From positions 1 to 64,000 of IMG/VR virus record IMGVR_UViG_3300001605_000025: DNA of 64,000 bases; one strand, written 5' to 3'. Below the pieces are notes generated by a model that saw only the letters and a program-made list of their open reading frames with translations, made no database searches and was not told the origin of the DNA. This DNA comes from a virus (taxonomy: Duplodnaviria; Heunggongvirae; Uroviricota; Caudoviricetes). The position numbers were made by a program, and so were the translations under genes. Positions 901 through 52,442 of this stretch are shown piece by piece. How positions within the stretch are numbered: position 1 is the stretch's first letter; every line of letters begins with the position of its first letter.

Positions 901-1800
901 TTAGTTGGGTGAGTCTACATTCTTGAACAACGGTAACCCGTTATCGTTCACTGGAATATAGATTGCCTTCGGATTAGTCTTCATCGTTTCCAACCAATAC
1001 CACTGTAAGTACTGTTCAGATAACGATCCGGCGATAATCTTGTTCGCATCAGCGATACCTTGAGCTTCAGCTCTCATACGGTTTGATTCCATCTCCTGGA
1101 CACTAACTTCATTCTGCTTGGTCTTAATCTTAGTCTCCATATTCATCTGATCAGTTCGTGCATTCGTGAATTCAGGTGGAAACTCAATATTCCGTATATA
1201 GAACTGCTCAATCGTTATGGAGTCCTTAACCCCAACGTTGTTAATACGCTCACGTACAGCGTCACCCATTCTCTGTTCAACTAACAGTCTGTCTGCTCCA
1301 CCAGTACTTGCAGAATACAACGTCTTAGCATCATACTGAGACATTACATCCCTCGGCACAGTATGCATAGGGTCCCTAAGTACTGTCGTAATATAATCAG
1401 TTCCTACAGTCTTATAAACCTCTACGGCTTTATTTGGATTCAGATGATAGTTCATTGTGACACCAATCGTAGTCTTTAGGGCTTCATTAGATAGTCCAAC
1501 GATGGTAGCTACATCATTAGTCCCATAGTCTATGTACTTCTGTGTCTGAACGGACATAGGGATTATCCTCGTGAACGGGAACTTCAAGTGAAATCCAGGT
1601 TCAAGAACGTTATCGTTAACAGTTCCGAACGTATCCTGAATTCCAACATGTCCAGCTGGAACAGTTGTTATACAGTTCAATAGTAACGGTAATACTATGA
1701 ACGTCCCTATAACTCCAACAAAGAGTACTCCCAGTACTCTTAACGGTCTCGGTTCTCCATACTTATCTCGAAAGAATGATTGTCTCCGATTGTCTTCCAT
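901..1800 (-). CDS. SPFH/band-7 (prohibitin/stomatin/HflKC-like) membrane protein
   Basis: N-terminal TM helix, then an SPFH-like core and a C-terminal AEAQGIADANKI-type coiled-coil typical of band-7 proteins. Confidence 0.6.
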   Translation of the reverse strand: MEDNRRQSFFRDKYGEPRPLRVLGVLFVGVIGTFIVLPLLLNCITTVPAGHVGIQDTFGTVNDNVLEPGFHLKFPFTRIIPMSVQTQKYIDYGTNDVATIVGLSNEALKTTIGVTMNYHLNPNKAVEVYKTVGTDYITTVLRDPMHTVPRDVMSQYDAKTLYSASTGGADRLLVEQRMGDAVRERINNVGVKDSITIEQFYIRNIEFPPEFTNARTDQMNMETKIKTKQNEVSVQEMESNRMRAEAQGIADANKIIAGSLSEQYLQWYWLETMKTNPKAIYIPVNDNGLPLFKNVDSPN

Positions 1801-10636: not shown

Positions 10637-10945
10637 TTACTTCTTTGCGGCCTGGTCCTTCTTCTTTGGAGCCTCGTACCTGAACACGTTGTGCGCTACT
10701 TCTTTGAACCCTGCCTTTCCGTCCATTGCGTACTTAACAGTCATCCAGTTGACCTTCACCTTGGGCTCATCACCAGTCTTGCCTTCATTCAGGCCAGCAT
10801 CAAGCCATGCCCTCAGTTTTGCAACTGTGTAGTCCTGGCCATCCGCCATGATCTCCTTCAAGATCTTGTTGTACCTGGCTACTGATTCAGTCTTCGACCT
10901 TCCGCGCACTTCAACGTTTGCCTTGATTGCATTCCAGTCTGTCAT
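10637..10945 (-). CDS. Lys-rich hypothetical protein
   Basis: 102 aa, SD AAGGAG. The overlapping + ORF 10517..10885 looks like non-coding translation. Confidence 0.5.
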   Translation of the reverse strand: MTDWNAIKANVEVRGRSKTESVARYNKILKEIMADGQDYTVAKLRAWLDAGLNEGKTGDEPKVKVNWMTVKYAMDGKAGFKEVAHNVFRYEAPKKKDQAAKK

Positions 10946-11103
10946 GCTTTACTCCTTGGCACCCTTTTTTGTGCCACATGCTTCACAAATTTCTTCATCG
11001 ATACACACACTTTGATATCATCGGTCGGCTTGCCCAGTGCTAGTTGGCAACGCGTCATCCCCAATCTATCATTCAACAGGTCAGGACATCCATCACACTT
11101 CAT
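10942..11103 (-). CDS. small Cys-containing protein (53 aa)
   Basis: Hand-found ORF (MKCDGCPDLL...). Its stop overlaps the next ATG (ATGA). Approximate. Confidence 0.35.
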   Translation of the reverse strand: MKCDGCPDLLNDRLGMTRCQLALGKPTDDIKVCVSMKKFVKHVAQKRVPRSKA

Positions 11104-11128
11104 CCTTCATCCCCCCTTTTATTTTCAA

Positions 11129-11314
11129 TTAAACAATAATAACAATTTCATGTTCAAGATCCGGTACTAATTCCTTAACAGTAACATACCCTCTTACATC
11201 AGGTAATCGGTCCGCTACAATAACGTTGCCTCGATAATTAACAGTTGCGTAAACTGTGATAGTTCCAAGATCAACTTTGGTCCATAACATATCGTCAACA
11301 CGTATTGGTTCCAC
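11129..11314 (-). CDS. hypothetical protein
   Basis: 61 aa, GTG start with SD AAGGAGGT 6 nt upstream. Confidence 0.45.
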   Translation of the reverse strand: MEPIRVDDMLWTKVDLGTITVYATVNYRGNVIVADRLPDVRGYVTVKELVPDLEHEIVIIV

Positions 11315-11375
11315 TTTTAACCTCCTTTTTGTTTTTCAACAATATAAAAACAACTTCAACAGTTAACCACTATAA

Positions 11376-11401
11376 TCAACCCCAGCTAGGCGGGGGTTGA
11401 T
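11376..11401 (-). terminator. GC-rich hairpin TCAACCCC-AGCTAGGC-GGGGGTTGA
   Basis: Perfect 8-9 bp stem. It lies about 110 nt downstream, in the minus sense, of the last G-free-island gene. There is no strong T-tract, so function is uncertain. Confidence 0.25.
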
Positions 11402-11514
11402 AGGTGTCGGTAACCTTATAACTATAACGCTTAGTTGTGTAACCATATAAGTCACCTTTCATTAAAAAAACTTTAAAATAACTCTCTATTCCACATACAC
11501 CTTATTACTTCTTA

Positions 11515-11706
11515 TCACCACTCCTCAAATTCAAATCCATCTTCATCCACCAACTTCCCTTTCTTTCTATTCAATAAATTATTATAACTATAATCCTCCT
11601 CACTTTCTTTCTCATCAACATTACACATACCTTTAACATTCCATCCACAACTTATTATCTCACACTTTCTCCCTTTCCAACAAATCTTATCTTTACCTTC
11701 AATCAT
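11515..11706 (-). CDS. G-free-island protein 4 (63 aa; lacks A/T/P/H/Q)
   Basis: Track ORF. Codons use only A/G/T. Confidence 0.5.
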   Translation of the reverse strand: MIEGKDKICWKGRKCEIISCGWNVKGMCNVDEKESEEDYSYNNLLNRKKGKLVDEDGFEFEEW

Positions 11707-11845
11707 TATTCTTCATCTCCTTCATATATTCATTAATACCTTTATCATATACTTCTTTACTCACTTCTTTCCACCACTTACATTCAATACAATCATCATA
11801 ACATTCATCAACCTCTTTATTTAAACAAAACCCATATCTACTCAT
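11699..11845 (-). CDS. G-free-island protein 3 (48 aa; C-x7-C-x3-C-x2-C)
   Basis: Hand-found ORF (MSRYGFCLNKEVDECYDDCIECKWW...). The ATG overlaps the upstream stop and the stop overlaps the next ATG. Approximate. Confidence 0.45.
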   Translation of the reverse strand: MSRYGFCLNKEVDECYDDCIECKWWKEVSKEVYDKGINEYMKEMKNND

Positions 11846-12107
11846 TCTTAATCACCACCCAATCTTCAACCTTTAATATATCATCATTCAACATTAACTT
11901 CTCAATAACATACCCCTCTTTATTCAACATATCCTTTATTCTATATATATCCAAACACTTATTCATATATCTACTTAAATCACCAACAATATCCTTTAAT
12001 CTCTTACTCCCACCAATCCTCACACTCATAATAACCATATCACATACATTACTATAATTAACCTTCTCAACCTTACCACATAACATTCTCATACAATATA
12101 CCTCCAT
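11838..12107 (-). CDS. G-free-island protein 2 (89 aa; lacks A/T/P/H/Q)
   Basis: Track ORF. An internal GGAGGT precedes the second Met. Confidence 0.5.
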   Translation of the reverse strand: MEVYCMRMLCGKVEKVNYSNVCDMVIMSVRIGGSKRLKDIVGDLSRYMNKCLDIYRIKDMLNKEGYVIEKLMLNDDILKVEDWVVIKNE

Positions 12108-19738: not shown

Positions 19739-20713
19739 ATGGGACGATATGTAAAAATCTCAACTGAGACTGAATCAACATTTGGTAACGGCACTGCAAT
19801 GCTTGCTGTTGCTAAGTTCACACCAATTCGTGTGAAGAGTATATCGAACCCTGTTGATCGTGGTCTTCTGATTGAAGAGAACATTGAAGGGTATATCCCT
19901 ACTGCTGCATATGGTGGTGCTCTGAAACTTTCCGGAACACTGGAAGGTAATCTTAGACCTAAGCAGATGGAGAACTTGATTTACTCGTTAATGGGTGCAT
20001 CGGCGGCAACGGCTGCTGGGATCCTGACGGGTATAGTCTATACGATGGCGAATCCGTTAAGTATTCAGATGAAAATTGGTGAGTCAACCACAGCAGCGAC
20101 TACCGATCTGGAACTTGGCTACATGGGTGCTGCCGTTAAGACGTTCAACATGAATGTTGCTGCGAAGGAATTCGTAACTGCACGTTTCGACTGGTTCGCT
20201 AAGAACTATACAGCTGCAAGTCCGTATAGTCCTCCAGCTTCGGGAGACTATTCAGATGAAGAACCAATTGTGTTCTATAATGCTAGTGTATCATTCGATG
20301 GTGTCGACACGAGTGCTAAGATTAAGAACATGACGATAAACATCGACCGGAAAGTTGATGAGGAACGGTATGTTATCGGAGACTACACGTTGACTGAAAT
20401 TGGTATCAACGGTATGAATGAGGTTACAGGAGACATCACGTTTACAGAACATGAGTACGGTATCTTTAGACAGGCGTTATTCGGTGCAACCACTGCATCG
20501 ACACTTGGTTGCGATGATGCTGTCGGAACAGCAGCATTCTTAGCACAATTTACGGATATTGCAGTGTGTGGTGCTGAAGCAGTTAAGATGTATGTTGAGT
20601 TCGGATCGATTAAATTCGCATCTACCGACACTACAATTAATGGTCAGAACGAGATTGAGAAGAAAGTTTCATACCGTGCCGTTGGGTACTTCGGTATCGG
20701 TGTTGCTACCTAA
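19739..20713 (+). CDS. major tail (tube) protein
   Basis: SD AGGAGG. 324 aa, located before the chaperone and tape measure genes. Confidence 0.5.
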   Translation: MGRYVKISTETESTFGNGTAMLAVAKFTPIRVKSISNPVDRGLLIEENIEGYIPTAAYGGALKLSGTLEGNLRPKQMENLIYSLMGASAATAAGILTGIVYTMANPLSIQMKIGESTTAATTDLELGYMGAAVKTFNMNVAAKEFVTARFDWFAKNYTAASPYSPPASGDYSDEEPIVFYNASVSFDGVDTSAKIKNMTINIDRKVDEERYVIGDYTLTEIGINGMNEVTGDITFTEHEYGIFRQALFGATTASTLGCDDAVGTAAFLAQFTDIAVCGAEAVKMYVEFGSIKFASTDTTINGQNEIEKKVSYRAVGYFGIGVAT

Positions 20714-20734: not shown

Positions 20735-21109
20735 ATGACAACGTTAAATATTAAAACTGCAAATGGAATCTATGAGGTTCGGAAACCAGCTGGAAAGCTT
20801 GGTGCTAGAAATATGATCATCCTGTCGAAGCTGGCGAATGTTCAGCCGATAAAAGTGAATGTGGAGAATGAAGATCCAGCTTTTGTTGAAAAAGTTCGAC
20901 AGATGAATAACGCTAAACAGATGGAAGCCTTCGGGAATGTCTTCGAAGAGTGGTCTGATAAGATCTTACCAACGATTGTTGTTAAGGGACCCTTTACGTA
21001 CGAAGAGATGCCTGGAGAGGACCAGCTGGCTATATTCCTTGCGTTGACACAAGAGACTCAGGTGACGGAAGAATTCTTTCAGATCTTGCCCGCCGAGCCT
21101 AGTGTATAA
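20735..21109 (+). CDS. tail assembly chaperone
   Basis: 124 aa, acidic, between the tail tube and tape measure genes. Confidence 0.4.
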   Translation: MTTLNIKTANGIYEVRKPAGKLGARNMIILSKLANVQPIKVNVENEDPAFVEKVRQMNNAKQMEAFGNVFEEWSDKILPTIVVKGPFTYEEMPGEDQLAIFLALTQETQVTEEFFQILPAEPSV

Positions 21110-21264
21110 CCTTGGAACATTAGCGTTCTTTACTGGGTCCCGACCCTCCGCTTTTTTCGAGTGGAACGATCCAGACGACTGGGCCGAACGACTAACGTTT
21201 GATAGTTTAGTAATGAACACTGCAATGCCAGAGCTAATAAATAAAATTATTGGAGGGGATTCCA

Positions 21265-24200
21265 ATGGCAGATCGTGAAATTATTGAGTACGAAATAGTA
21301 ATGGATGATACCCAACTAGTAGAGACGGAACGGAGAGTGAAGGAACTTCGTGGAATGCTTGAAGATGTCCGGAAAGGTGTTACTGTTAATATGACTGTAC
21401 CGGATATCGAGAAGGAACTGAAAGCTCGTGTTGCTGCTATAAATAGCTATATTAAGGGTAGTATTAAAATCGACGATATGTTCGATAGACGATTTGACAG
21501 AAATGCTGCTCGTTCTGTAGGTGATGATGTTGGTAAGCAAGTTGCAAAAGGAATGACTGAAGCAATACGAAGTGCCTTAAATAAATTCACACCTGATACT
21601 GATGTTAATCTCGAGAAGCATATTGCTGATCCCCTCCAGCAAAAGACTATTCGTGAAACGTTAACACCTAGTAAAACAAAGACATCACAACTTGTAGCAT
21701 CGAAACGTGAATCGTTAGCTAACATTAAACAGTCTATTACTGCCCTACAAAATCTAACCGCTGAACAGAAATCAGAGCTATCAAAGCGAAATAAAGAGAT
21801 CGACAGACTGTATAGTGATGAGGAACGGGCTGATAACGAGTTTATTGATCAGTTAACTGATGCTGAAGAGCGTCATGATCAAGTTATTAAAGACTTATCA
21901 GTTCAGATGAAAAAGCCACGGTCTGAACTGAAAGATGAAGGCTTCTATATTAAAGGGAAGTTCGTAAAGACTGGATTCGGATCACATAGGGACGTATTGG
22001 AACCCACACCATTAGTTACTCCAGCTAGTAAAGAGTATGGAAAAGGCATCGGAGCTCAACAGAAGATACCAGAACCAGGTCCTGTTCCGTCTAGATTACC
22101 GTCTCGTGACAGGTTTAAGACGAATGAAGAGTTTCTACTGGCGTTAAGAAAGGCCCGTGAGTTTTATATTACTCAGACGTTTAAGGAGATCTTTGGACGT
22201 GGAGCGATAGATACTAAGGCTTTAAGTAGGATGACAAAGGAGCAGCTAGCAATTACGACTAATGAGAATGCACCACGGAAGCCGAGATTAGATAAACAGA
22301 TCGAAACTGAGTTAAAGTTACTGTTTAACGATCCGAAGTATACTGTTAAGTTAAATGAGATATTAAAACAAGCTGAGACGAATGAACTTGGTGCTATACA
22401 AGAAATTAGATCTATTATAGAGTATGAACGTGGTAAAGTTGACGATATAATGCCCTATAATAGGATTAAACAGTGGAAGGATAGACTAAAGTCTACTGAA
22501 CCGGAGGATACTGGAAAACGTGAATATCATCAGGTAGTTCCGAGACATCAGGCGTATGATCCATTGTGGCACAAAAGGGCAGGACGGACAGTAGAACGTA
22601 CTGTATCAGCTGAACCGGTTGATCAGTTGACTGATAAGTTTGTGCGACAGAAAGACGTTAAGTATGATACGATATCTAAGATACAACGGAGGATGCGTGG
22701 TATTAATAAACTAGCTGATCAGTTGTATACTGTAATTCAGGACGCACAGACGTTATCACCTAAGTTTTATGCTGCACTAAATACTAGACAGCCTAAACCG
22801 ATTAGTAAGCATGCTTTATCACCAAAATTGGAAGCTATGCTAGAGGTAGAAGCTGAAAGACAGTTAGCTCCACAACGAGAAGTTCAGAGAGCTCCCGCTA
22901 CATTAGTTGCGTTTACTGGACATCGTCCAAATAAACTTGGTGGATATGATGAGACAACACAACCAGTTAGAGATATTAAAGCCGGACTAGTAGACTCTAT
23001 ACGGACTGCTATTGCCAGTGGAACGAAACATTTCATATCAGGAATGGCACTTGGTGCTGATATGTGGGCTGCAGAGGCAGTACTCGAACTTAAAAAGGAG
23101 TTCCCTGATATTAAGTTAACAGCAGCTGTTCCATTTAAAGGTCAAGAACGTCAGTGGCCTAAACCAGTACAAGAACGTTATAGTAAAATATTAAGTCAGG
23201 CTGATACTGTTAAGTATATCTCAGATGAAAAGTCAAAACTAAGTATATCTCAGATGATGCAGAAGCGTAACCAGTGGATGGTTGATCAAGCCGACAAGAT
23301 GATTGCCGTATTTAGCGGATCTGCTGGAGGAACTGCAAACACTATCAGAGCTGCTAAGAAACGTGGAATACCGGTAGAAAATGTGCTTGAAAATTTGAAA
23401 CAACCTGAACAAGCGAGAACAGAGACAGTTCGGGAGGCTAAGAAGACGTTAGGTCCTCAGTATGTTCCACCTGTTGTACCAACGACTATTGAGCAGACTG
23501 AGAAAGTTGTTAAGCCTGTCGAGAAAGCGATTCAGAAGCCGGTAACTGAAAAGCAGGTGGGTCCAGATGCGTTCGCTAAAATAGCTGATGCGATTAATAA
23601 TCAGTTGACGATCCAATCTGGACCCGGACTTACTCCTGAACAGTTAACTAAGCATATAGACTGGATGGGACTTGGAAAGGAAATTGGTACTGGGTTTGAA
23701 CCAAATCCTATTAATCTGAAACCGATTCAGGAAGCTATGGAACGGGTACTAAACGCTGAACCGCCAAAATTATTAACAGCAGGTAAACCAACTGAAGTGC
23801 CTGATAAGGTAACATTGTATCGTGGGGGAGCACGTAAGAAAGAAGATAGTGATATAGAATCTACAAGTAATTGGTTCACAGATGAGCTGGAACGTGCACG
23901 CGGATACGCAGCTATGCGGACTATGGCGTCTGAAGGAGAAAATAAAGTTCCAGCGATTAAAACAATTAGTGTTCCATCTAGTTTACTAAAAACGTTAAAA
24001 GATGTTGGGTCACATAGTCCGGGACATGAATTCCAGTTACCACCGGAAATTGCTAAACGTGCAGAAACTGCCCCAGACTTACTGAAAGGTCCGATCACTA
24101 TATATGGTAAGACACCAACAGTTAAAATGCAACAGGCTTACGATTCGTTAGTTGATAAGGTAATTCAACCAATAAAGACTGGGATTGATACATTTAATAA

Positions 24201-27200
24201 TCGATCAACTGAGATACCAGCTGAATCGGGAACGAAGTATTTCAAGAATGCCCCAAAGAGTCAACGATTTGAAGACTCATTAAGTGGACTAGATCGTAAA
24301 GAGTATATGCAAGAATCTCAAGAAGGACTTGATGCGTTACATAATGAAATGAATAATATGACCTGGGAGCAGAGTGGTGAAGTAAATAAAGTAAAAGATG
24401 TACAGAAGAAACGTCAGGACTTAATTGATTTTGTTAAGAATGCTGGTGTAAAAATTGGTCTCGATATCGATGAAACGATTCAAAGTATGAACGTGTTCTC
24501 GATTATGTTTGGTGAAGAGAGCAAGGGATTCTTAGATCCTGAATATATGAATAAGAATTACGAACAGTGGTTTGAGAAGCTAAATAAACTAAGCCCGATA
24601 TATAGTGATATACAAAAGTTCCTCGGGAATAAATCCGTACTGATAACAGCTAGACCAAATCTAGTGGGACTTCACGATAAAGCACAACAAATCGGTAAGC
24701 AGTTCGGAGCTATAGCAACGTTCGCAGTTGAGAATACGAAAGAGAAGGCTAAACTGATTAAGGAACTAGGACTAGAAACGTATTACGATGAGGATACGTT
24801 ACAAGTTACCAAATTACAGAAGGAGCTTGATGCAATAGGTGCAACGACTAAAGTTATGCAGTCTGATTTTGGTGTTGCAAGAGAGAAAGGTGAACTACCA
24901 AATGTTAAGCGTATGGCTGAACAAGCTACAGCTAAACCGGTAACTAGTCCTGTTAAGACTGAATTACCAACAGCTCCGGCACAGAAACCAACTAGGAATA
25001 CGATAGCTGATACGTTAAAGGGAATGGTAATAAACGGTGGTGCGTTAGGTGGTGCTGGACTTGGATTCCTTGGTGGGATGACACTTGGACCGTTACCTGC
25101 AGTCTTTACAGGTTGGTTAGGTGCTAACATTGGGATGTGGGTTGACCGGGTAATCAAGAGTGGTCAACTGAAACAGTCGATTGCGAATCTGTTCAATAAG
25201 ACACCAGTTGTTGAGATTCCACCTACTGTTGTTGAGAAGACAACTCAGGTTGCTACTGGAATTAGTGACGCAATGGCTGGGATGTTAGAACGTTCGACGT
25301 TCCAGGCACAGAAAGTTATACGTGATAAGTTTGCATCTGTTGATAAGAACGGCGGAACGTTAACGATTGAAGAGGCTCCTGGTGCAGAACCTGCTTATCC
25401 TGGTGCAGCTGTTCCAAATGTTCCGTATGTGAATCCTGCTCTCGTTACTAGAGTTGAAGGAAGCGTAACGGGTATAGTTACAGCAATGACTACAGCATCG
25501 AGAGATATAGCGACCGCTGGTGGAAAGGTAGCTGGACAGATACAAGTTCTTGGGATGGAGGACTTCGGAAGTCTTGGTGGTAGTATAAAGGAAGCTGCAC
25601 AGAAAGGTGTTCAAGCTGTTCAGGAGAAAATGCCACGATTAGGATCGTCTGAACGTCCATATACCGGTGGTATTCGTTGGCAGAAGTTCTTAGACGGAAC
25701 GTTGTTTACGGATCAGAAAGCTTATGAGGAAGCAGTTGCAGCGAAGATTGATGAGTCAATTAAGTTCCAGGTTGACACGCTACGTGAGATGACTGGACTA
25801 TCGTTAGAAGCAGCAACAACGTTACGAAAGGATCTAGCTGCTATAATTAAGCCATCTCGTATGAAGATGTCTACGTTAATTGGTAGAGCTAAGGCGTATA
25901 TCGAGACTAAAGGGGCAACTGGAACTACTCCTGAGGCACTGAAGGAGTTTGCAACTGGTGAGGAGAAGATATTTGAACGATCTCATCCTGCAATGAAGAA
26001 TCTAGTTCCTGAGGACGTTACACCGTATCAGAGAATGTTTGGACAGGACTACACAATTAAACTGTCATTCCTAGATTATGATGAGTTCATGGCTGCAGCT
26101 GAGACTGTAAGACAGTTACCTGGATGGACTAGTACCGCGACTAAGGAATTCGAACGGTATGGTCAGCTCGGAACTAATGTTCTACATACGATGAAAGTTA
26201 CCGGACATATACCTGGTGGAAAGGAGATTGGGGGACGGATTGAACAGGTACGGACAGCTACCGAAACGTTAGCAACTGGACCATCGGCTATAACTGAAAG
26301 AAGTCAGTTAGAGATTGGAGATAAACGACTGAACTTACAGGAACGGATGAACTTAGCTGCGATGTATCTGGATAAACTGAACTGGAAGCTTGTACGCGGA
26401 CAGATGGCTCTATTAGGTATCGCATTCTCGATGATGGGTGCAATCAAGATGATCCAGAAGGCCTGGTCGACTGTAACAACTAGTATGTCGAATCTACCTG
26501 ATATATTTAAGAATATCGGTATGGCGATGGCATTCGGACCAGCTAACGCACAGGGATTCCTACGGACTATGCTTGGATCGAGTAACCAGATTGTTGGATC
26601 CTGGAAGAAGTTCACCGGTTATACAGCAACGTTAAACTCGATGCTTGCGTACTTTGCATTCCGTTTACTACAGGATACACGTGTAATCTTTGCGATCGAT
26701 CGATTGGTAGAGAAGATTATAGGACTACTGTCCGATCAGGCATTCTTAGATAAGATCTTCGGATTAATAGCTAACATTATCGATGCGTTACCTGGTGCAG
26801 TTGATTGGATCGTTAGTATGGTAACATGGTTAATGGGAATTTTAGAGACTCCAGGGATGAAGGATGTTCTAAAATGGGCTCTCGCTATGGGATTAGCAGC
26901 TCAGTTCCTGATGACCCCGTTAGCATTGTTAGGTGGTGCCGTACAGTTCTTGGGTTGGGCAGTTAGTGCACTAGCAGCTATACTAGCAACTGTACAAGCA
27001 GGATGGACTCTACTATTGGGACAGTTAATGGGAGCGCCAGCTGCATTAACTCAGGTTGTTGCCGGAATAGCTGGTGGAATCGTTCTTGGACTAGCTGCAG
27101 TCTGGTTACTCGTTAAGATGGGAATCATCGATGCAGTAGTTAAGATCGGTGAAGAGTTCCAGAAGAACTTCCCTGATATAATGGCTATACTGAGGATAGT

Positions 27201-28389
27201 TCTATCTCCGTTAGCGTTACTTGGTGGAATAATTCTTGAACTCGTTACAACAGGAGTTCAAGTATTCTGGGATACCTTACGTATTCTATTTGATAGAGGA
27301 GCAATAGATGCTGGAATATATCTGTTACAGGGTTTACTCTATTTAGTCGGTAGGATTGCTAACGTGATAGCGACAGTTCTAGTTGGTGTCATATCATCGG
27401 TTATGCAACTAGTAGTTAAAGCTATTATCAGTAACATAGGATTGATTCCGGGTGTTGGATCATTCCTATCAGCTATGGGATGGGATGCTAAAACTATCAA
27501 TGCTGAAATTGGTAAGGTAGCTACATCATTAACGGGTGGTATTGGATCGTTAGTAGATCAGTTCTTGAGACCTGCTAGTTATGGGATCAGCTCATTACCT
27601 GGAAGAGCTAGAGGCGGAAAGGTAGTTGCTGGAACACCCGTTATCGTTGGTGAAGAAGGACCTGAGGTGTTTGTACCAAGTGGATCTGGAGATATAATTC
27701 CGAATCATATGACTGGATATGCCGACGGTACAGTTGATGCTATAAGTCTTGAGGCGTCAGCAGAGAAGATCGAGAAAGGAGGATCTGATATTGTATACGG
27801 AGCCGAGGCATATAAACGTATAATGGAAGAACACCGTTCTAAGAATTTCGATATGATGAATCGGTTAATTGGTAATGTCGATCGGATATTCTGGGATGTA
27901 TCAACGGGAACGAATCAACAGATCGGAATGACGAACCCGAACGTACCTGTTACCGGTGATAAGGATTATACACGACATAGAGAACAATTCCTAAGTGCTA
28001 GAACACAGGAAGAAGTTCGTGCTATGCCAAGTGGATTCAGCGGACGATATACTGAACTTGTTCAACCTATTGCTAGTGCTGTGACTAGTATAGCAACCGG
28101 GATACATCAATCATACAGTAGTCTAGAAGAAGTTCTAAGATTACGCAAGTCGTTATCATCTATGGGACCGTTAGCGACTCCAGTGTATCCACATCTAGCA
28201 TCTGGTGGGTTTGTTATGCAGACTGGTGCTGCGGTTGTACATAAAGGAGAACGTATAATACCTGCTGAAGAAGCTTCAGTACAATCCGTTCAGGTTACTA
28301 ACTACGTTACGGCTACCGTCAATAATAAGACTGATGAGAAGTATCTGTTAGAGTTAATGGGTAGAAAGTATTACAGTGGAGCGTATTAA
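21265..28389 (+). CDS. tape measure protein (2374 aa) with embedded YpsA/SLOG(DUF1273)-like domain
   Basis: Coiled-coil N-terminal half, hydrophobic glycine-zipper segments, and the C-terminal VIVGEEGPEVFVP motif typical of tape measure proteins. Track ORF 21250 uses TTG; the ATG at 21265 follows SD GGAGGGG. Confidence 0.85.
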   Translation: MADREIIEYEIVMDDTQLVETERRVKELRGMLEDVRKGVTVNMTVPDIEKELKARVAAINSYIKGSIKIDDMFDRRFDRNAARSVGDDVGKQVAKGMTEAIRSALNKFTPDTDVNLEKHIADPLQQKTIRETLTPSKTKTSQLVASKRESLANIKQSITALQNLTAEQKSELSKRNKEIDRLYSDEERADNEFIDQLTDAEERHDQVIKDLSVQMKKPRSELKDEGFYIKGKFVKTGFGSHRDVLEPTPLVTPASKEYGKGIGAQQKIPEPGPVPSRLPSRDRFKTNEEFLLALRKAREFYITQTFKEIFGRGAIDTKALSRMTKEQLAITTNENAPRKPRLDKQIETELKLLFNDPKYTVKLNEILKQAETNELGAIQEIRSIIEYERGKVDDIMPYNRIKQWKDRLKSTEPEDTGKREYHQVVPRHQAYDPLWHKRAGRTVERTVSAEPVDQLTDKFVRQKDVKYDTISKIQRRMRGINKLADQLYTVIQDAQTLSPKFYAALNTRQPKPISKHALSPKLEAMLEVEAERQLAPQREVQRAPATLVAFTGHRPNKLGGYDETTQPVRDIKAGLVDSIRTAIASGTKHFISGMALGADMWAAEAVLELKKEFPDIKLTAAVPFKGQERQWPKPVQERYSKILSQADTVKYISDEKSKLSISQMMQKRNQWMVDQADKMIAVFSGSAGGTANTIRAAKKRGIPVENVLENLKQPEQARTETVREAKKTLGPQYVPPVVPTTIEQTEKVVKPVEKAIQKPVTEKQVGPDAFAKIADAINNQLTIQSGPGLTPEQLTKHIDWMGLGKEIGTGFEPNPINLKPIQEAMERVLNAEPPKLLTAGKPTEVPDKVTLYRGGARKKEDSDIESTSNWFTDELERARGYAAMRTMASEGENKVPAIKTISVPSSLLKTLKDVGSHSPGHEFQLPPEIAKRAETAPDLLKGPITIYGKTPTVKMQQAYDSLVDKVIQPIKTGIDTFNNRSTEIPAESGTKYFKNAPKSQRFEDSLSGLDRKEYMQESQEGLDALHNEMNNMTWEQSGEVNKVKDVQKKRQDLIDFVKNAGVKIGLDIDETIQSMNVFSIMFGEESKGFLDPEYMNKNYEQWFEKLNKLSPIYSDIQKFLGNKSVLITARPNLVGLHDKAQQIGKQFGAIATFAVENTKEKAKLIKELGLETYYDEDTLQVTKLQKELDAIGATTKVMQSDFGVAREKGELPNVKRMAEQATAKPVTSPVKTELPTAPAQKPTRNTIADTLKGMVINGGALGGAGLGFLGGMTLGPLPAVFTGWLGANIGMWVDRVIKSGQLKQSIANLFNKTPVVEIPPTVVEKTTQVATGISDAMAGMLERSTFQAQKVIRDKFASVDKNGGTLTIEEAPGAEPAYPGAAVPNVPYVNPALVTRVEGSVTGIVTAMTTASRDIATAGGKVAGQIQVLGMEDFGSLGGSIKEAAQKGVQAVQEKMPRLGSSERPYTGGIRWQKFLDGTLFTDQKAYEEAVAAKIDESIKFQVDTLREMTGLSLEAATTLRKDLAAIIKPSRMKMSTLIGRAKAYIETKGATGTTPEALKEFATGEEKIFERSHPAMKNLVPEDVTPYQRMFGQDYTIKLSFLDYDEFMAAAETVRQLPGWTSTATKEFERYGQLGTNVLHTMKVTGHIPGGKEIGGRIEQVRTATETLATGPSAITERSQLEIGDKRLNLQERMNLAAMYLDKLNWKLVRGQMALLGIAFSMMGAIKMIQKAWSTVTTSMSNLPDIFKNIGMAMAFGPANAQGFLRTMLGSSNQIVGSWKKFTGYTATLNSMLAYFAFRLLQDTRVIFAIDRLVEKIIGLLSDQAFLDKIFGLIANIIDALPGAVDWIVSMVTWLMGILETPGMKDVLKWALAMGLAAQFLMTPLALLGGAVQFLGWAVSALAAILATVQAGWTLLLGQLMGAPAALTQVVAGIAGGIVLGLAAVWLLVKMGIIDAVVKIGEEFQKNFPDIMAILRIVLSPLALLGGIILELVTTGVQVFWDTLRILFDRGAIDAGIYLLQGLLYLVGRIANVIATVLVGVISSVMQLVVKAIISNIGLIPGVGSFLSAMGWDAKTINAEIGKVATSLTGGIGSLVDQFLRPASYGISSLPGRARGGKVVAGTPVIVGEEGPEVFVPSGSGDIIPNHMTGYADGTVDAISLEASAEKIEKGGSDIVYGAEAYKRIMEEHRSKNFDMMNRLIGNVDRIFWDVSTGTNQQIGMTNPNVPVTGDKDYTRHREQFLSARTQEEVRAMPSGFSGRYTELVQPIASAVTSIATGIHQSYSSLEEVLRLRKSLSSMGPLATPVYPHLASGGFVMQTGAAVVHKGERIIPAEEASVQSVQVTNYVTATVNNKTDEKYLLELMGRKYYSGAY

Positions 28390-44595: not shown

Positions 44596-44811
44596 TTATC
44601 CCTCTCGGAAAACTTTTCGTTCTATCATCATTCGAATAGCTTCTAGTGCTGGAGATATCTCTACCCAGTCTCCAGAAAAATAGCTGGTTGGTAAGTTTGC
44701 TTTATCGCAATATGAATCAAACAGTTCAGACTTCTGCATCCATTCATGTTCTGTGTCCAGAAGCTCTAAAAATTGGACTAACGTTAGATTAGTTTCTTTC
44801 CCTTCCGACAT
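44596..44811 (-). CDS. hypothetical protein
   Basis: 71 aa. Confidence 0.35.
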   Translation of the reverse strand: MSEGKETNLTLVQFLELLDTEHEWMQKSELFDSYCDKANLPTSYFSGDWVEISPALEAIRMMIERKVFREG

Positions 44812-45563
44812 ACCGACACCACGTCATGCTGATGAATTGATTCCTGATGTGTACAGACGACTACCCAATCTTCCATCCATCCATCGATCGTTGCACCGAT
44901 CACTCTTGAAGCATCCTCGACAAACAGATTCGTTCGGGCGGCTCGCTGACACCAATCTAGTTCGTCCGGTCTCTTCATCAACGGTATAGGAACAATGTCT
45001 ACCACTTCGATGATCCGTGCTACAATTGATGTCATTAGATCGTCCAGGTCCTCCTTCGGCGATAACAATCCAGTTACCTGTGCTAAAGCTCGCTGCATAT
45101 GAGGAACCCCTCCTTCTTGTTTCACCATTCTCATGGCACATGGGCACACACTCGCATACGGAACTTTCATAGTCAGATACCAATCTTCTTTATCGGGTAC
45201 ACGGACACCTTCTAACATACTATCTATAAAGATCAATTGTTCGTTCTCCATCTCATATGCTGCTGTCCAATTACATTCCCAGTAACTGTTAGTCGTTTCA
45301 TGTCCTTCAGCTAACGTTTCTAATAATTCTGAGTTCATATAAATCGGATCGTCCTCGTAATCTGTTAACGCATCAACTAATCGTGACATATGAACACCAG
45401 TCCGATCGATCAGATCAACATAAGCAGACTGACTTGTTAACGTTCGTCGTCCGCTAAAGTCTTGCATAAACTGTTTGAATCCTTTAATACCAACTTTCTC
45501 TAGTGGCATACCACCAGACGGACCTTCAGCATAGTCAGGTAACAATCGTACACATGAATCCAT
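44784..45563 (-). CDS. folE2: GTP cyclohydrolase FolE2/MptA-like
   Basis: N-terminal LPDYAEGPSGGMPLEKVGIKGFK resembles the FolE2 LPDVQ...VGIKxL block. The start was trimmed to the ATG with SD AAGGAG. Confidence 0.5.
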   Translation of the reverse strand: MDSCVRLLPDYAEGPSGGMPLEKVGIKGFKQFMQDFSGRRTLTSQSAYVDLIDRTGVHMSRLVDALTDYEDDPIYMNSELLETLAEGHETTNSYWECNWTAAYEMENEQLIFIDSMLEGVRVPDKEDWYLTMKVPYASVCPCAMRMVKQEGGVPHMQRALAQVTGLLSPKEDLDDLMTSIVARIIEVVDIVPIPLMKRPDELDWCQRAARTNLFVEDASRVIGATIDGWMEDWVVVCTHQESIHQHDVVSVCRKGKKLI

Positions 45564-45564
45564 A

Positions 45565-45738
45565 CTACTGCTCCTTTGGGTTCTTCCAGTTACCAAATAC
45601 AGTCTCAAGAACAGCTGCTGAATATGGATGTGTATTACATGAATTATGAAGTAGCTGTTGGTCACAGCTTATAGCTCGTAACGCCTCTCCAATTGCATCT
45701 ACTTTCTGTTCAAGTCTTTTAAAGTCTTTAGTAGTCAT
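45565..45738 (-). CDS. small hypothetical protein (57 aa)
   Basis: The ATG overlaps the QueE stop (TAATG). Approximate. Confidence 0.3.
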   Translation of the reverse strand: MTTKDFKRLEQKVDAIGEALRAISCDQQLLHNSCNTHPYSAAVLETVFGNWKNPKEQ

Positions 45739-46385
45739 TATCTCACCTTATACAGTACATGAAGTCTCGGGCTTACGGCTCCGTTAACTCCATATTCATC
45801 CATCATACGAATAATCTCACGAACCATTCTATTATGTTCCGTTATCATCGTATCGTCCTGGGGAGTCATCGGCATAAAGTACATTCTCACTTCAGAGTGT
45901 TCAGTTGCCCATTTCATCCACCATCTAATATTCTCATACCTAATAACTGGTTTAATAACTACATCTACTTCACAAATGTTAGTCCACAACGTTAATAGAT
46001 CGGTCAGTCCAGAAGTAGGTAGTTCACTATCTTTCGGACTAACAACTACCAGATCGAACGCAGCAACACCAAACGGTATCGTTCCATTCGTTTCGATAGC
46101 ATGTGTCATACCTAACGATTCAACTGAAGCGATCGTATCCTTTATCTCATCAACCTGGAGTCCAGGTTCTCCACCAGTCCAGACAACGTTCCTCACTCCT
46201 TTCTTATATGCTTTAGTAATCAGGCTTTTTAGTTCAGTCCGACTAACATTAATATACAGTGTTGCGTATTTCGTATCACAAAAAGGACAATGAAGATTAC
46301 AGCCCGATAGTCTTATAAACAACGACCGTACTCCAGCTTGTGGACCTTCACCCTGAATCGATATAAACGTTTCGTTTAGTCTCAT
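45738..46385 (-). CDS. queE: 7-carboxy-7-deazaguanine synthase (radical SAM)
   Basis: FISIQGEGPQAGVRSLFIRLSGCNLHCPFCDTKY. Confidence 0.8.
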   Translation of the reverse strand: MRLNETFISIQGEGPQAGVRSLFIRLSGCNLHCPFCDTKYATLYINVSRTELKSLITKAYKKGVRNVVWTGGEPGLQVDEIKDTIASVESLGMTHAIETNGTIPFGVAAFDLVVVSPKDSELPTSGLTDLLTLWTNICEVDVVIKPVIRYENIRWWMKWATEHSEVRMYFMPMTPQDDTMITEHNRMVREIIRMMDEYGVNGAVSPRLHVLYKVR

Positions 46386-49030: not shown

Positions 49031-50950
49031 TTATGAACATCCAGACCACCCGCATGTCATACACGTTCCGCTTCTACAACCCGAACCGAAACTAAGTACC
49101 GTCCCACATTGTGGACACTTATTCGTTACAATTTCAGATTCTGTAAACCAGAATGCATTCATTCGTTTCGCAAGAATATCCGGACAACTCTTTCCAGCAG
49201 AGTTTGGATTCTTCATTGCGGTAGTACACTCAACTTTCGATAGCGTCGATATGATCCGTTTAATCGTTGTCTTCTCATCACCATAGAGTCTCGGGTCATG
49301 TATATACTTGGAAATAACCTTCCCCATTCCTTCCATGTTAGCCTTACATCCGCCTTGCGTGAGAACATAAGCTTCGTATGGGTGATCGTCGGCGATGTTG
49401 TTATTGGTAGTAACGTGTATCTCGCCACACCCTGTGGGGAAGTCCAACGTTCTACCGTATCGTTCAACTCTGTCTCCTTTAGAGCTCGGTTGGCCTCTTC
49501 CTGGAATCGGTCCAGTAGGTCGAACAGATGTAAGTACCTGTTTATCTTTTGAACCATCTCGATACACCGTTATCCCTTTGCATTTCAGTTTCCAAGCTAA
49601 ATGTATCGCATCCTCAATATCCTGTACTGTAGCACTTGATGATAGATTAATCGTTTTTGATACAGCGTTATCAACATGGTTCTGCCAGGCAGCCATATGT
49701 TTCAACTGCCACTCTACAGATATATGCTTAGCTGTATCTTCTAGTAATCCATGTTGTCTTGCGAGATCGGTCAGTGGATGTTCGAGTGTTACAATTCCAG
49801 CTTCTGACTCTCGTGTGTACGTCCAGTCAAATACTGGTTCGATACCTGACGAACAATCTGCAAGGAAGGATAATGTTCCAGTTGGAGCAATCGTCATAAC
49901 TGTTTCGTTGTTATAGGTCCGTCCTGGAACTTCTCTCGTTGCAACATCATAGTACCTAGATCCAATCTTATCGATCAACTGAATCGCTTCTGTTGATTGA
50001 TAGCTGATACCCATTTTAATCAGTAAGTCAGCCCAACCCATAACACCGGATCCAATCTTTCTAGACAGTAATGTAGCCTCTCGTATCTCTGGTATCGGGA
50101 ACGTATTCAAATCAATAACATCGTTTAACGCTCGTACCGACAATCTTACCGTATCGTCAAGCATCCCGTAATCAAACGTCTCTCCTTCCGGTATCAGTTT
50201 ACTTAGATTGATAGACGCTAAATTGCACGACTCATACGGTCGTAACGGCTGTTCGCCACAAGGGTTCGTACAATCGATAACACCTCTCTCAGGAAACCGA
50301 TTCGTCTCGTTGAGTCTATCCAAAAATACGACACCGGGGTCTCCCGTTCTCCAGGCATGCTCTGCAATAGTGTGAACCAGTCCGTTATCGCTTTGCATAT
50401 CTGAGTCCTTGATCCCGACGCTAATATTGAAATGTGATAGTCCGGATCCACTATCTTTACAGTGTATAAACTCTTGGATGTCTGGATGATCAGCGTTAAG
50501 TATCCCCATATTGGCACCCTCGCGTTTACCTCCTTGGGATACCACACCGGCTGACTCGTTAAGCAATTCCATGACTTTAACAGGACCACATGCTTTCCCT
50601 TTAGTTGATTGTATAAGTGAGCCACGTGGTCTAAGTCTAGAGAAGTTGAAACCGGTTCCACCAAAGTACTTATGCACACGGGCGGCGTGCCAAACCGTTC
50701 TATATATTCCATCCAGTGAATCTTCCACTGGTAAGACGTAACACGCTGATAATCCTCCAGCTCCCGGTACGCCTGCATTAACAAGCGTCGGAGTGTTTGG
50801 CAACCAGATTCCGTGAGACATAGCATTGAGCAATGTTTCCGTGTACTTGCGATCCTCTCGTCCGATAAACTTTGCAACTCTCTCATATACATCACGTTCT
50901 GTTCTCTCTCCAGGTTGTAAATAACGATCCTTTAGTAGTTTCTCTTTCAT
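49031..50950 (-). CDS. ribonucleotide reductase catalytic subunit (probably class II, B12-dependent) with C-terminal Cys-rich tail
   Basis: NPCGEQPL...CNLASINL active-site block. 639 aa single chain, C-terminus CPQCG...CMTCGWSGC. Confidence 0.75.
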   Translation of the reverse strand: MKEKLLKDRYLQPGERTERDVYERVAKFIGREDRKYTETLLNAMSHGIWLPNTPTLVNAGVPGAGGLSACYVLPVEDSLDGIYRTVWHAARVHKYFGGTGFNFSRLRPRGSLIQSTKGKACGPVKVMELLNESAGVVSQGGKREGANMGILNADHPDIQEFIHCKDSGSGLSHFNISVGIKDSDMQSDNGLVHTIAEHAWRTGDPGVVFLDRLNETNRFPERGVIDCTNPCGEQPLRPYESCNLASINLSKLIPEGETFDYGMLDDTVRLSVRALNDVIDLNTFPIPEIREATLLSRKIGSGVMGWADLLIKMGISYQSTEAIQLIDKIGSRYYDVATREVPGRTYNNETVMTIAPTGTLSFLADCSSGIEPVFDWTYTRESEAGIVTLEHPLTDLARQHGLLEDTAKHISVEWQLKHMAAWQNHVDNAVSKTINLSSSATVQDIEDAIHLAWKLKCKGITVYRDGSKDKQVLTSVRPTGPIPGRGQPSSKGDRVERYGRTLDFPTGCGEIHVTTNNNIADDHPYEAYVLTQGGCKANMEGMGKVISKYIHDPRLYGDEKTTIKRIISTLSKVECTTAMKNPNSAGKSCPDILAKRMNAFWFTESEIVTNKCPQCGTVLSFGSGCRSGTCMTCGWSGCS

Positions 50951-51603
50951 AGTCTCATCACGTTACCGATGTAATCTTCGTCACGCTTTAAGTACAGATG
51001 TGGACAGAAACAAATATGTGTATACGTTCCAACCGGTAGTCCTACAGCTAACGATATATGTTTCTGTAACTCCGTTAGTCCATACATATTTGGACCTAGT
51101 CCCAGTGTCATATCCTCCGACCGGAATACAACTTTCATATTTAAACGTCCTTCTCTTACATCACAATGTATCAACTGTAAGCACGGAACGTCTTCACGAG
51201 TCGTATCCAATTTCGGATTCCATGTTATCGCTTGAGCTCGTCTAGTAGATGGTGACCCAATAAGTTTCTGTTCAATATACGTTATCTGGTTGATCCCAAA
51301 GTGATGCGTTAATCGATCGTGGTAATCGTAGACAAAGTCAGCAGACGTTCCCGCAATCAGATCGTTAGCATACTGATCCATATACTTCTGACTGAACGGT
51401 AGTGTGGGAGGTTTAATAAATCGTGGTTCCACAAACGGAGTTCTAATAAACAATGCTAGTTCTTTAGCCTCAATAGTATCCTGTTTGTTCTCTCCAGGAT
51501 ATACAATCGGGCATTCAGTCTCATCTTTATAACAATGGTTCATGATATACCGTATAACGATCTCATGACCTTTCGCTAAGTTAGGTGCTTGTAACAACTT
51601 CAT
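50947..51603 (-). CDS. thymidylate-synthase-family enzyme (ThyA / dCMP- or dUMP-hydroxymethylase-like)
   Basis: PCLQLIHCDV...RSEDMTLGLGPNMYGLTELQKHISLAVGLPVGTYTHICFCPHLY matches the ThyA fold blocks. Short at 218 aa. Confidence 0.55.
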   Translation of the reverse strand: MKLLQAPNLAKGHEIVIRYIMNHCYKDETECPIVYPGENKQDTIEAKELALFIRTPFVEPRFIKPPTLPFSQKYMDQYANDLIAGTSADFVYDYHDRLTHHFGINQITYIEQKLIGSPSTRRAQAITWNPKLDTTREDVPCLQLIHCDVREGRLNMKVVFRSEDMTLGLGPNMYGLTELQKHISLAVGLPVGTYTHICFCPHLYLKRDEDYIGNVMRL

Positions 51604-52136: not shown

Positions 52137-52442
52137 TCACTTCTCCGGCCATGGTCGTCTATTAGCATGAAACATATACCCAACTCGTTGTAACGATCCA
52201 TCTAGTAGTCTAATACAAACTATCTCCGCATGATATCCAGCAGCTTCTAATGGAGCTACTTCATTACATATGATATCATTACATTCAGTAGTTAACCTAT
52301 TTGCTTGATCACCAAACTCAGTAACTGTTATCAATCCTGCTTTTAGGTCAAACCATAGATCATCTTTCCGTTTAGCTAATATCTGTAATCGATCGTGAGC
52401 ATCTTTTAATTCTTGAAGCTTCTGATCAGTCATAAATATCAC
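52137..52442 (-). CDS. hypothetical protein
   Basis: 101 aa. Confidence 0.4.
   Translation of the reverse strand: MIFMTDQKLQELKDAHDRLQILAKRKDDLWFDLKAGLITVTEFGDQANRLTTECNDIICNEVAPLEAAGYHAEIVCIRLLDGSLQRVGYMFHANRRPWPEK

Follow-up and report, generated by a model that had tools for sequence, protein, structure and literature searches.

The window analyzed here, 64,000 nucleotides of DNA from an uncultured phage of about 75 kb, carries a tail module in which a tail tube gene is followed by a gene of 124 amino acids (aa), a giant open reading frame (ORF) of 2374 aa that exceeds every other structural gene in length by a wide margin, two genes of 313 and 653 aa, and genes for PKD and beta-helix proteins (Table 1). 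The tube gene is identical in L001 and L003, where it carries Phage_tube_2, and it matches phrog_290, of the tail category. The 124-aa gene matched no family. Translation of the giant ORF gives 2374 aa from the ATG at 21265 and 2379 aa from a TTG upstream at 21250; the ATG, which has the Shine-Dalgarno sequence GGAGGGG just 5' of it, is most likely the true start. The gene call was continuous in independent assemblies from other samples, with 0 nucleotide differences, so that an assembly chimera is unlikely.

Table 1. Features of the tail module and of the giant ORF (positions in the window; residues numbered from the ATG)
Feature	Coordinates	Strand	Basis
Tail tube gene, separated from the giant ORF by one gene	19739..20713	+	PF18906 Phage_tube_2; phrog_290
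124-aa gene, in the position of a tail assembly chaperone	20735..21109	+	Position only
Giant ORF, read as tape measure protein much extended at its N terminus	21265..28389	+	ORF list
YpsA/YoqJ-type SLOG domain (residues 547-711)	22903..23397	+	
F-T-G-H-R-P motif, first strand of the SLOG domain	22912..22929	+	92-100% conserved, 231 aligned members
G-A-D, GxD/E signature of the predicted nucleotide-binding site (YpsA G53, E55)	23053..23061	+	
R-N pair	23266..23271	+	100% and 95% conserved in the family
G-G-T motif, close to the C terminus of the SLOG domain	23326..23334	+	81%, 100%, and 100% conserved in the family
Linker 3' of the SLOG domain (residues about 712-784), Pro/Lys/Glu/Val/Thr-rich	23398..23616	+	Read from translation
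Orphan middle region of the N-terminal extension	23617..24984	+	Without homologues or confident fold
Tape-measure-like C-terminal region	26317..28386	+	Hydropathy scan, sequence, tblastn, phrog_30701
Block common to tape measure proteins of other phages	27388..27864	+	tblastn

The giant ORF had been called a tape measure protein in an earlier, sequence-only reading, and it is indeed best read as that of a siphovirus-like phage because of its slot in the tail module after the tube and 124-aa genes, its great length, the hydrophobic segments in its C-terminal third, and a block that matches annotated tape measure proteins of other phages. Hydrophobic 19-residue windows cluster at residues 1876 to 2074 (TTG numbering; about nucleotides 26875 to 27471), and the C-terminal region also holds two copies of a G-E-x-G-P-E/G-E-R-I-I-P-type motif and a match to phrog_30701 (residues 2093 to 2162). 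The matching block, of only ~160 residues (about 2042 to 2200, ATG numbering), found its tblastn matches (E values of 1e-7 to 3e-4) in Methylophilaceae phage P19250A, Cyanophage KBS-S-2A, and Ralstonia and Vibrio phages, in proteins annotated as "tail length tape-measure protein." It is highly improbable that the ORF encodes some other large virion or injected protein that merely happens to lie in the tail module. Such a protein would be consistent with the lack of a match to any tape-measure family of Pfam, NCBIfam, or PHROG and with the lack of an established programmed frameshift in the gene upstream (an open frame of ~70 codons runs across the 3' end of this 124-aa gene, with no slippery site or homology established), but the synteny is canonical, the stretch from the tube gene to the distal tail genes holds no other tape measure candidate, and both the C-terminal block and the hydrophobic segments argue for a tape measure protein.

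Embedded in this single ORF is a genuine and complete SLOG domain of the YpsA family (DUF1273). The Pfam profile PF06908, whose gathering score is 27.7, matched with 111.8 bits (E value of 4.5e-32) over residues 553 to 698 in TTG numbering (548 to 693 from the ATG) and profile positions 1 to 144 of 168, and the isolated segment scored slightly better (2e-33, 116.2 bits). A phmmer search of the PDB matched only Bacillus subtilis YpsA (2NX2; E value of 4e-20), in an almost gap-free alignment that bears out the block-by-block similarity to YpsA noted in the sequence-only reading. That reading had suggested a Pfam search and structure prediction as checks, and both came out in its favor: the AlphaFold2 model (59-sequence alignment) reached a pLDDT of 95.4 and a pTM of 0.90, with a Rossmannoid SLOG fold superposable on YpsA. 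The peptide that it quoted, from FTGHRPNKLGG to GIPV, is found in the frame of the long ORF (the F of FTGHRP at nucleotide 22912, GIPVENV at 23365), and the range that it gave, residues about 545 to 710, fits the structured domain in ATG numbering. Its nucleotide segment, 22905 to 23385, had the right content, although the start was set one base ahead of the codon boundary at 22906, so that translation straight from 22905 runs into stop codons.

The domain is also intact. Among the positions conserved in at least 80% of 231 family members, 36 of 38 are kept, including FTGHRP, GxD, W, RN, and GGT. The T, G, H, and R of the first motif are invariant in alignment A2, and the G and D of G-A-D, equated with YpsA G53 and E55 through the ungapped 2NX2 alignment, are 100% conserved in the 231-sequence family alignment. 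GC and GC3 of the segment are the same as in the rest of the gene, which argues against a recent, unselected insertion; no compositional sign of recent transfer was found by either measure.

By its sequence, the domain falls into the YoqJ-like branch of phages and not into YpsA proper, so that the earlier YpsA-like assignment holds for the family (PF06908) but not for YpsA itself. The NCBIfam YpsA equivalog NF010181 gave 86.5 to 91.6 bits, short of its cut-off of 165, and identity to YpsA is ~30%, the second-lowest among 230 other aligned sequences. YpsA requires G42, E44, W45, G53, E55, and W87 for filamentation (PMC6459960); here four of the six remain (G42, G53, W87, and, in the form of D, E55), while E44 and W45 are replaced by K and H. 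The GxD/E motif of YpsA is the predicted nucleotide-binding site, a site for a small nucleotide, and proved important by mutation (PMC6459960). YpsA proper is found in the context of its conserved gene partner gpsB, whereas none was found near the giant ORF. Both B. subtilis YpsA and SPbeta YoqJ are stand-alone proteins of 160 to 230 residues, in contrast to this domain, which is internal to a 2374-aa tail protein.

Other branches of the superfamily are farther away. The Pfam DprA profile PF02481 matched the domain just over its gathering score (31.4 to 35.6 bits against 29.6), the DprA equivalog TIGR00732 stayed well below its cut-off (13.8 to 19.5 bits against 191), and PADLOC reported a ShosA match at 2.9e-5. 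DprA and ShosA, DNA-binding members of the SLOG superfamily, are ~20% identical to the domain and differ from it by additional domains (SAM and winged-helix-like in DprA). The SLOG domain of Thoeris ThsA, which binds 3'cADPR, and the LOG phosphoribohydrolases are more distant than DprA and ShosA, and no specific ThsA or LOG profile of Pfam or PADLOC matched.

The linker that follows the domain was without a family match (Pfam, E values up to 10), and the middle region (residues about 780 to 1250) retrieved nothing by Pfam at the same threshold, by phmmer against the PDB, or by a word-indexed homologue search; its single-sequence AlphaFold2 model had a pLDDT of 37.8 and no confident fold. Two patterns were picked out by eye in this region, an ADP-ribosyltransferase-like R/STS/E pattern (residues about 865 to 930) and a HAD-like DxDxT...T...DD pattern (residues about 1072 to 1182), both unsupported; the sole hint for the latter was a nonsignificant similarity (E value of 0.17) between "VKIGLDIDETI" and motif I in the NT5C protein of locus L086. 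For the protein as a whole, neither a full-length word-indexed search nor a pattern scan of IMG/VR found any relative, and none was retrieved by a contig scan or when deposited phages were searched by megablast with the structural module. In an exhaustive HMMER search with residues 61 to 1260, the best 150 matches all ran through the SLOG domain alone, except P0001, a truncated copy of the giant-ORF protein itself.

The SLOG domain is normally a small, separate phage protein. In 240 loci sampled elsewhere, the YpsA domain was always encoded by a stand-alone gene of 160 to 280 codons; YpsA/YoqJ-like SLOG proteins were present in 199 of the 50,697 deposited phage records, and 6477 cluster representatives were matched. 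A 2022 survey likewise describes viral SLOG domains as "typically standalone proteins" (PMC9503650). A SLOG domain inside a tape measure protein is an architecture not described in the literature searched, in agreement with the sequence-only reading, which knew of no description of one delivered by a tail. In viral contigs, the stand-alone homologues adjoin DNA methyltransferases, parts of restriction-modification systems, and HTH regulators, with C5 methylases making up 14 of 130 dereplicated neighbors and lying within two genes at 16 of 79 loci.

Fusion to giant proteins has nevertheless arisen independently. Two proteins, P0016 (2472 aa) and P0047 (2376 aa), carry a SLOG domain of the same type at the N terminus and occupy the same kind of slot (genes for capsid, adaptor, and Phage_tube_2, then one of about 155 aa, and then the giant ORF). 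They are 48% identical to each other and have only the SLOG domain in common with the giant ORF, profile-profile comparison included. Their identity as tape measure proteins rests on position, because viral-contig scans for both and a tblastn search of the C-terminal half of P0047 against deposited phages returned no match. A metagenome scan with the alignment of the two, whose patterns were too degenerate, returned only stand-alone SLOG genes. A third protein, P0011 (3054 aa), combines the domain with the polyvalent-protein domain LPD38, and its gene comes immediately behind those for the terminase and a putative portal. Since the fusion recurs in the P0016/P0047 lineage and in P0011, it seems to have been selected more than once in virion-borne giants. 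The YoqJ-like branch is also fused to Macro (P0005 and P0040) and NADAR (P0002 and P0020) domains. A tape-measure-specific SLOG clade derived from a single ancestral fusion found no support: the nearest neighbors of the domain are stand-alone proteins (54% identity), P0016 is at rank 25 by identity, and nothing is shared beyond the SLOG domain.

The presence of the domain in tape-slot proteins of two unrelated lineages and in a polyvalent protein suggests that it is needed at DNA entry, a timing that narrows the hypotheses to early counter-defense or genome protection. What we infer from the arrangement is that the domain would be present in the virion, be delivered by the tail, bind a ligand, and exert an effect; an action in the host upon injection had likewise been put forward as a possibility in the sequence-only reading. 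The most likely role would be a time-zero counter-defense whose target is either NAD/ADP-ribose-type nucleotides or the DNA that enters. A tape measure gene would at some point have captured a SLOG gene of the phage YoqJ type, and the domain would now sit between flexible linkers in the ~1250 residues by which the protein is extended at its N terminus. The tape measure protein of studied siphoviruses occupies the tail tube and is ejected, before the DNA, into the envelope and the cell, and therefore the domain would reach the cell ready-made at time zero, each virion bringing a few copies. The conserved GxD/E pocket could then bind or process a nucleotide-type ligand, for which the best candidate would be derived from NAD+ or ADP-ribose, either a soluble immune signal or an ADP-ribose adduct, and the incoming genome would be protected before any phage gene is expressed. 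That the captured domain is a counter-defense or host takeover module with precisely this kind of ligand is a tentative reading, to which we give somewhat less than an even chance. The Macro and NADAR fusions of the YoqJ-like branch point to ADP-ribose chemistry, and viral YpsA-like SLOGs have been predicted to counter cADPR-type signals (PMC9503650); no experiment on any YoqJ-like protein was found in the literature searched. With so few copies in each virion, the domain would be weak as a sponge but adequate as an enzyme. Three copies of a 165-residue alpha/beta domain should not fit folded in the lumen of the tube, so in the tail they would be either unfolded or sited outside the lumen, and how folded cargo passes through the tail tube is a question raised by this architecture.

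A DprA/ShosA-like module that binds the leading end of the genome or single-stranded DNA, with no NAD or ADP-ribose chemistry involved, is an unlikely alternative but the strongest one; the domain would then pilot or protect the DNA, or recruit recombination proteins, during entry of the DNA into the cell behind the tape measure protein. The marginal DprA match, the ShosA match, the methyltransferase and restriction-modification neighbors of the stand-alone homologues, and the extreme N-terminal location of the domain in P0016 and P0047 would all suit it, as the tape measure proteins of studied siphoviruses have their N terminus toward the head, where the DNA lies. However, the YpsA match is far above that to DprA (112 against 31 bits), DNA binding is reported for no YpsA-family member, PMC6459960 treats the GxD/E pocket as a site for small nucleotides, and the Macro and NADAR fusions favor ADP-ribose chemistry. 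It is quite improbable that the domain is not delivered at all and instead acts late in the producing cell, in tape measure protein not yet assembled, is cleaved off before assembly, or serves as a spacer or assembly aid in a tape measure protein of unusual length. The steric problem posed by folded domains in the tube lumen would disappear, and tape measure proteins of some studied phages do undergo proteolytic processing, but a stand-alone gene would do equally well for late cytoplasmic action, the near-complete set of conserved positions argues against a mere spacer, and the fusions to tail-slot giants and to the head-module protein P0011 argue for selected codelivery. Very improbable is a YpsA-like inhibitor that blocks FtsZ-ring formation in the host, as B. 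subtilis YpsA does when overproduced: an excess of YpsA inhibits division in B. subtilis and Staphylococcus aureus, and the same possibility was raised for the prophage homologue YoqJ, which likewise lacks the conserved filamentation residues (PMC6459960), but here E44 and W45 are replaced, identity to YpsA and the equivalog score are low, and a divisome is unlikely to be titrated by the few molecules that each cell would receive.

Returning to a tail-delivered counter-defense, a broader and somewhat doubtful version of it would make the tape measure protein a tail-borne carrier of cytoplasmic effectors, with several cargo modules that would disarm nucleotide-based or DNA-directed immunity at time zero. 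The ~1250-residue extension would then combine the SLOG domain with orphan regions, including one with HAD-phosphatase-like motifs seen by eye, all threaded through the tail before the DNA, and the N-terminal SLOG fusions of P0016 and P0047 would be further cases of this strategy.

Tape measure proteins with embedded enzymatic parts are known, such as T5 pb2 with its muralytic domain and that of mycobacteriophage TM4 with an Rpf-like motif. The resemblance lies in a globular functional module within the tape measure polypeptide, presumed to be active on ejection, but those modules act on envelope peptidoglycan, whereas for a SLOG domain no substrate in the envelope is known, and it would have to reach the cytoplasm or the DNA to act. 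What is normally a small separate protein may thus be delivered ready-made by the tail, which would widen the cargo of tape measure proteins from cell wall hydrolases to a nucleotide-binding domain of cytoplasmic type. Virion-packaged anti-defense proteins such as P1 DarA and DarB, T4 IPI*, and T4 Alt also enter ready-made with the DNA and act before phage gene expression; they are separate proteins carried in the head, while the cargo described here is part of a tail polypeptide. Alt is cited in PMC9503650. The polyvalent proteins (Iyer et al. 2017, PMC5512222) share with the giant ORF their size, a build of several regions, a conflict-type domain, and a predicted association with the virion and entry with the DNA. 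Their genes are linked to those for head, portal, and MuF, and the head is their presumed place of packaging, whereas the giant ORF occupies a tail slot, away from the portal/MuF or conjugation genes whose linkage marks polyvalent proteins; Pfam found no LPD domain in it, the YpsA domain being its only recognizable effector domain, and PMC5512222 mentions neither SLOG domains nor tape measure proteins. If the tape measure protein is indeed a carrier of effectors, it would represent a second delivery route besides the head-packaged polyvalent proteins.

The peptide quoted in the sequence-only reading was located in the frame of the giant ORF, and the span proposed for it (22905-23385) held for the peptide content but not for the exact ends, being one base out of frame, a trivial discrepancy. 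Its assignment to the YpsA/SLOG family was confirmed by Pfam PF06908 (E=4.5e-32, 111.8 bits versus a gathering score of 27.7; E=2e-33 for the segment alone), and the only solved structure reached from sequence was 2NX2, B. subtilis YpsA (E=4e-20). This last alignment is gap-free over the first 103 aligned residues, and therefore the block-by-block match to YpsA proposed in that reading is real. The structure prediction suggested at that stage, performed with AlphaFold and a 59-sequence family alignment (A2), gave a pLDDT of 95.4 for the SLOG domain. Residue numbers are counted from the ATG unless stated (TTG-based numbers are 5 higher).

In an alignment with 230 other sequences (family members, SLOG segments of multidomain proteins, and YpsA), 38 positions reach ≥80% conservation, and the domain keeps 36 of them, including F-T-G-H-R-P, G593, the G597-x-D599 signature, P, W631, R668-N669, and G-G-T690. 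The two that differ are conserved tyrosines, and the domain is intact. In YpsA, the "GxD/E" motif at the predicted nucleotide site consists of G53 and E55, mutation of which abolishes function; YpsA-driven filamentation also requires E44 and W45 (PMC6459960), the equivalents of which are K and H in the giant ORF. The domain did not reach the NCBIfam YpsA equivalog cutoff (86.5 versus 165 bits), and its identity was ~30% to YpsA versus 50 to 54% to stand-alone "YoqJ-like" proteins, named after the SPbeta prophage homologue. We assign it to the phage YoqJ type. GC and GC3 of the segment equal those of the remainder of the giant ORF.

The window covers most of a ~75-kb phage genome, with terminase, capsid, PolB, RNR, and MCM-like helicase genes among others, and the same phage is present in four public assemblies (the longest of 74.9 kb), with the giant ORF identical base for base in all those that cover it. 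The capsid gene is followed by three small genes, the tail tube gene (Phage_tube_2), a gene of 124 aa, the giant ORF, two genes of 313 and 653 aa, and then those for PKD and beta-helix proteins. No gene large enough for a sheath separates capsid from tube, and the tail is therefore probably noncontractile. The C-terminal third of the giant ORF contains a cluster of hydrophobic segments, and a block at nt 27388-27864 matches annotated tape measure proteins of Methylophilaceae phage P19250A and Cyanophage KBS-S-2A, as well as Ralstonia and Vibrio phage homologues. Since no curated tape-measure profile from Pfam, NCBIfam, or PHROG matched the giant ORF, its identification, already made in the sequence-only reading, is based on synteny, size, hydrophobic segments, and this one shared block, which make it very probably a tape measure protein. 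The 124-aa gene, found in the chaperone position, is overlapped at its 3' end by an open frame of ~70 codons that reaches the giant-ORF start and might extend the chaperone by frameshifting.

SLOG domain excepted, the giant ORF before about residue 1250 had no relatives in Pfam, PDB, and homologue searches, and single-sequence AlphaFold gave no confident fold. A motif series resembling HAD phosphatases was seen by eye, with "GLDIDETI" as DxDxT and a helical stretch separating motifs I and II. This region had no match in Pfam, in PDB, or among homologues searched for, the sole hint being a nonsignificant alignment (E=0.17) of motif I with the NT5C protein of another locus (L086). A Gly-rich hydrophobic stretch, GMVINGGALGGAGLGFLGGMTLGPLPAVFTGWLGANIGMWV, possibly a glycine zipper or a segment active on membranes, marks the border between this orphan extension and the tape-measure-like C-terminal half.

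Elsewhere in the window, GTP cyclohydrolase FolE2 (E=4e-32) adjoins a possibly QueE-like radical-SAM protein, which suggests a 7-deazaguanine (preQ0/archaeosine-type) DNA modification pathway. TROVE (E=2e-30) and Ro60 vWA domains mark a protein of 507 aa as a phage-encoded Ro60-like RNA-binding protein. The phage also encodes a member of the SPFH/Band 7 family (E=6e-24) and, beside ribonucleotide reductase and a Cas4/PD-(D/E)XK nuclease, a short protein resembling thymidylate synthase (218 aa, partial match), which might be an enzyme of the pyrimidine hydroxymethylase type and not ThyA.

Coordinates of the features discussed, in the window unless a locus is named
Feature	Position	Strand	Remarks
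SPFH/Band 7 protein	901-1800	-	
Phage_tube_2 tail tube gene	19739-20713	+	two genes before giant ORF
~70-codon open frame	about 21067-21279	+	
Giant ORF, TTG start	21250	+	2379 aa; start in ORF list
Giant ORF, ATG start	21265	+	2374 aa; GGAGGGG upstream; start in public-assembly gene calls
Structured SLOG domain	22903-23397	+	residues 547-711
HAD-like motifs GLDIDETI, VLITARP, YYDED	24457-24480, 24637-24657, 24781-24795	+	by eye
Gly-rich stretch	about 25012-25149		
FolE2 and radical-SAM genes	44784-45665, 45738-46385	-	
Thymidylate-synthase-like, RNR, and nuclease genes	50947-51603, 49031-50950, 52426-53184	-	
TROVE protein	61973-63496	-	
P0011	L087 10001-19165		head-module protein; HExxH motif (HEITH) by eye, YpsA domain, LPD38
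P0040	L088 10001-15031		1676 aa; Macro and YpsA domains at C-terminal end
Example stand-alone locus	L094 10001-10441 (SLOG), 10831-11934 (C5 methyltransferase)		same strand

The YpsA-family domain matched 199 of 50,697 deposited phage records; among the matches listed (60 records), the underlying feature was a small gene or unannotated and in no case a tape measure gene. The stop-to-stop frame around the domain, measured in 80 IMG/VR, 80 metagenome, and 80 genome loci, spanned 160 to 281 codons in all 240. The genome matches came almost entirely from Clostridia of the gut or rumen, both MAGs and isolates (Oscillospiraceae, Acutalibacteraceae, and Christensenellales), a weak hint as to the host. 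Many RefSeq phage records (H4, H13, H15, and others) name YpsA/DUF1273 proteins "GTP-binding domain" after PHROG 289, probably a propagated misnomer, as the family has no visible basis for it.

An exhaustive HMMER search with the N-terminal part of the giant ORF nevertheless returned a few giants among the best 150 cluster representatives. Two of them, P0016 (2472 aa) and P0047 (2376 aa), share 48% identity and carry the SLOG domain at the extreme N terminus. On their contigs, capsid and SU10-type adaptor genes are followed by a single gene, Phage_tube_2, a ~155-aa gene, and then the gene for P0016 or P0047, which thus occupies the same slot as the giant ORF of the window. By BLAST and profile-profile comparison, the SLOG domain is all that they have in common with the window ORF and phage, and the nearest neighbors of the window's domain in the identity ranking are stand-alone proteins. 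Thus, at least two separate events, at different positions, most likely joined the domain to a tape-measure-slot protein. In P0011 (3054 aa), whose gene follows those for terminase, a putative portal protein (596 aa), and a 286-aa product, the YpsA domain is combined with "large polyvalent protein associated domain 38" (LPD38). P0011 is a SLOG-bearing polyvalent protein, a pairing on which the polyvalent-protein paper (PMC5512222) is silent. The gene of P0040 adjoins packaging genes and is divergent from the terminase and portal cluster; the N-terminal 1350 residues of P0040 are unassigned, and a "GGDDDGD" motif noticed there by eye might be a polymerase-type metal site.

No experimental study of any YoqJ-like protein was found in the searched literature. 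Viral SLOGs are described as mostly YpsA-like and "typically standalone" and have been proposed to degrade cADPR-type immune signals (Iyer et al. 2022, PMC9503650), with which the fusions of the YoqJ-like branch to ADP-ribose-processing domains (Macro, NADAR, and DUF488 or DUF1848 combinations) agree. In viral contigs, stand-alone SLOG genes are surrounded by genes for DNA methyltransferases, HTH regulators, recombinases, and parts of restriction-modification systems. Of 130 dereplicated neighbors, 14 are C5 methylases, and these lie within two genes of the SLOG gene in 16 of 79 IMG/VR loci (L089-L168), mostly just downstream on the same strand, although many loci are from related gut phages and these counts are not independent events. 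Because of both the fusions and the methylase/restriction neighborhood, a small-nucleotide and a DNA-directed role may each be considered candidates. Three copies per virion are expected if the tape measure protein is trimeric, as in studied siphoviruses, a number better suited to catalysis or to binding of DNA ends than to a sponge.

An intact YoqJ-type SLOG domain is thus part of a tape-measure-slot polypeptide, an arrangement that recurs, apparently independently. The siphovirus tape measure protein sits in the tube lumen and exits before the DNA, and known domains embedded in such proteins (T5 pb2, TM4) act at entry. The SLOG domain would be codelivered with it and might blunt host defense at time zero by acting either on a ligand of the NAD/ADP-ribose type or on the DNA as it enters. 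A main difficulty for codelivery is the steric fit of folded cargo inside the tube lumen. The main value of the fusion is that it indicates when a common, uncharacterized phage domain acts, and it suggests a tail-borne route for cytoplasm-type cargo. As first suspected, the combination is absent from the searched literature; its parts, namely, phage YpsA-family SLOG domains, enzymes embedded in tape measure proteins, and polyvalent effectors delivered by the virion, are already known.
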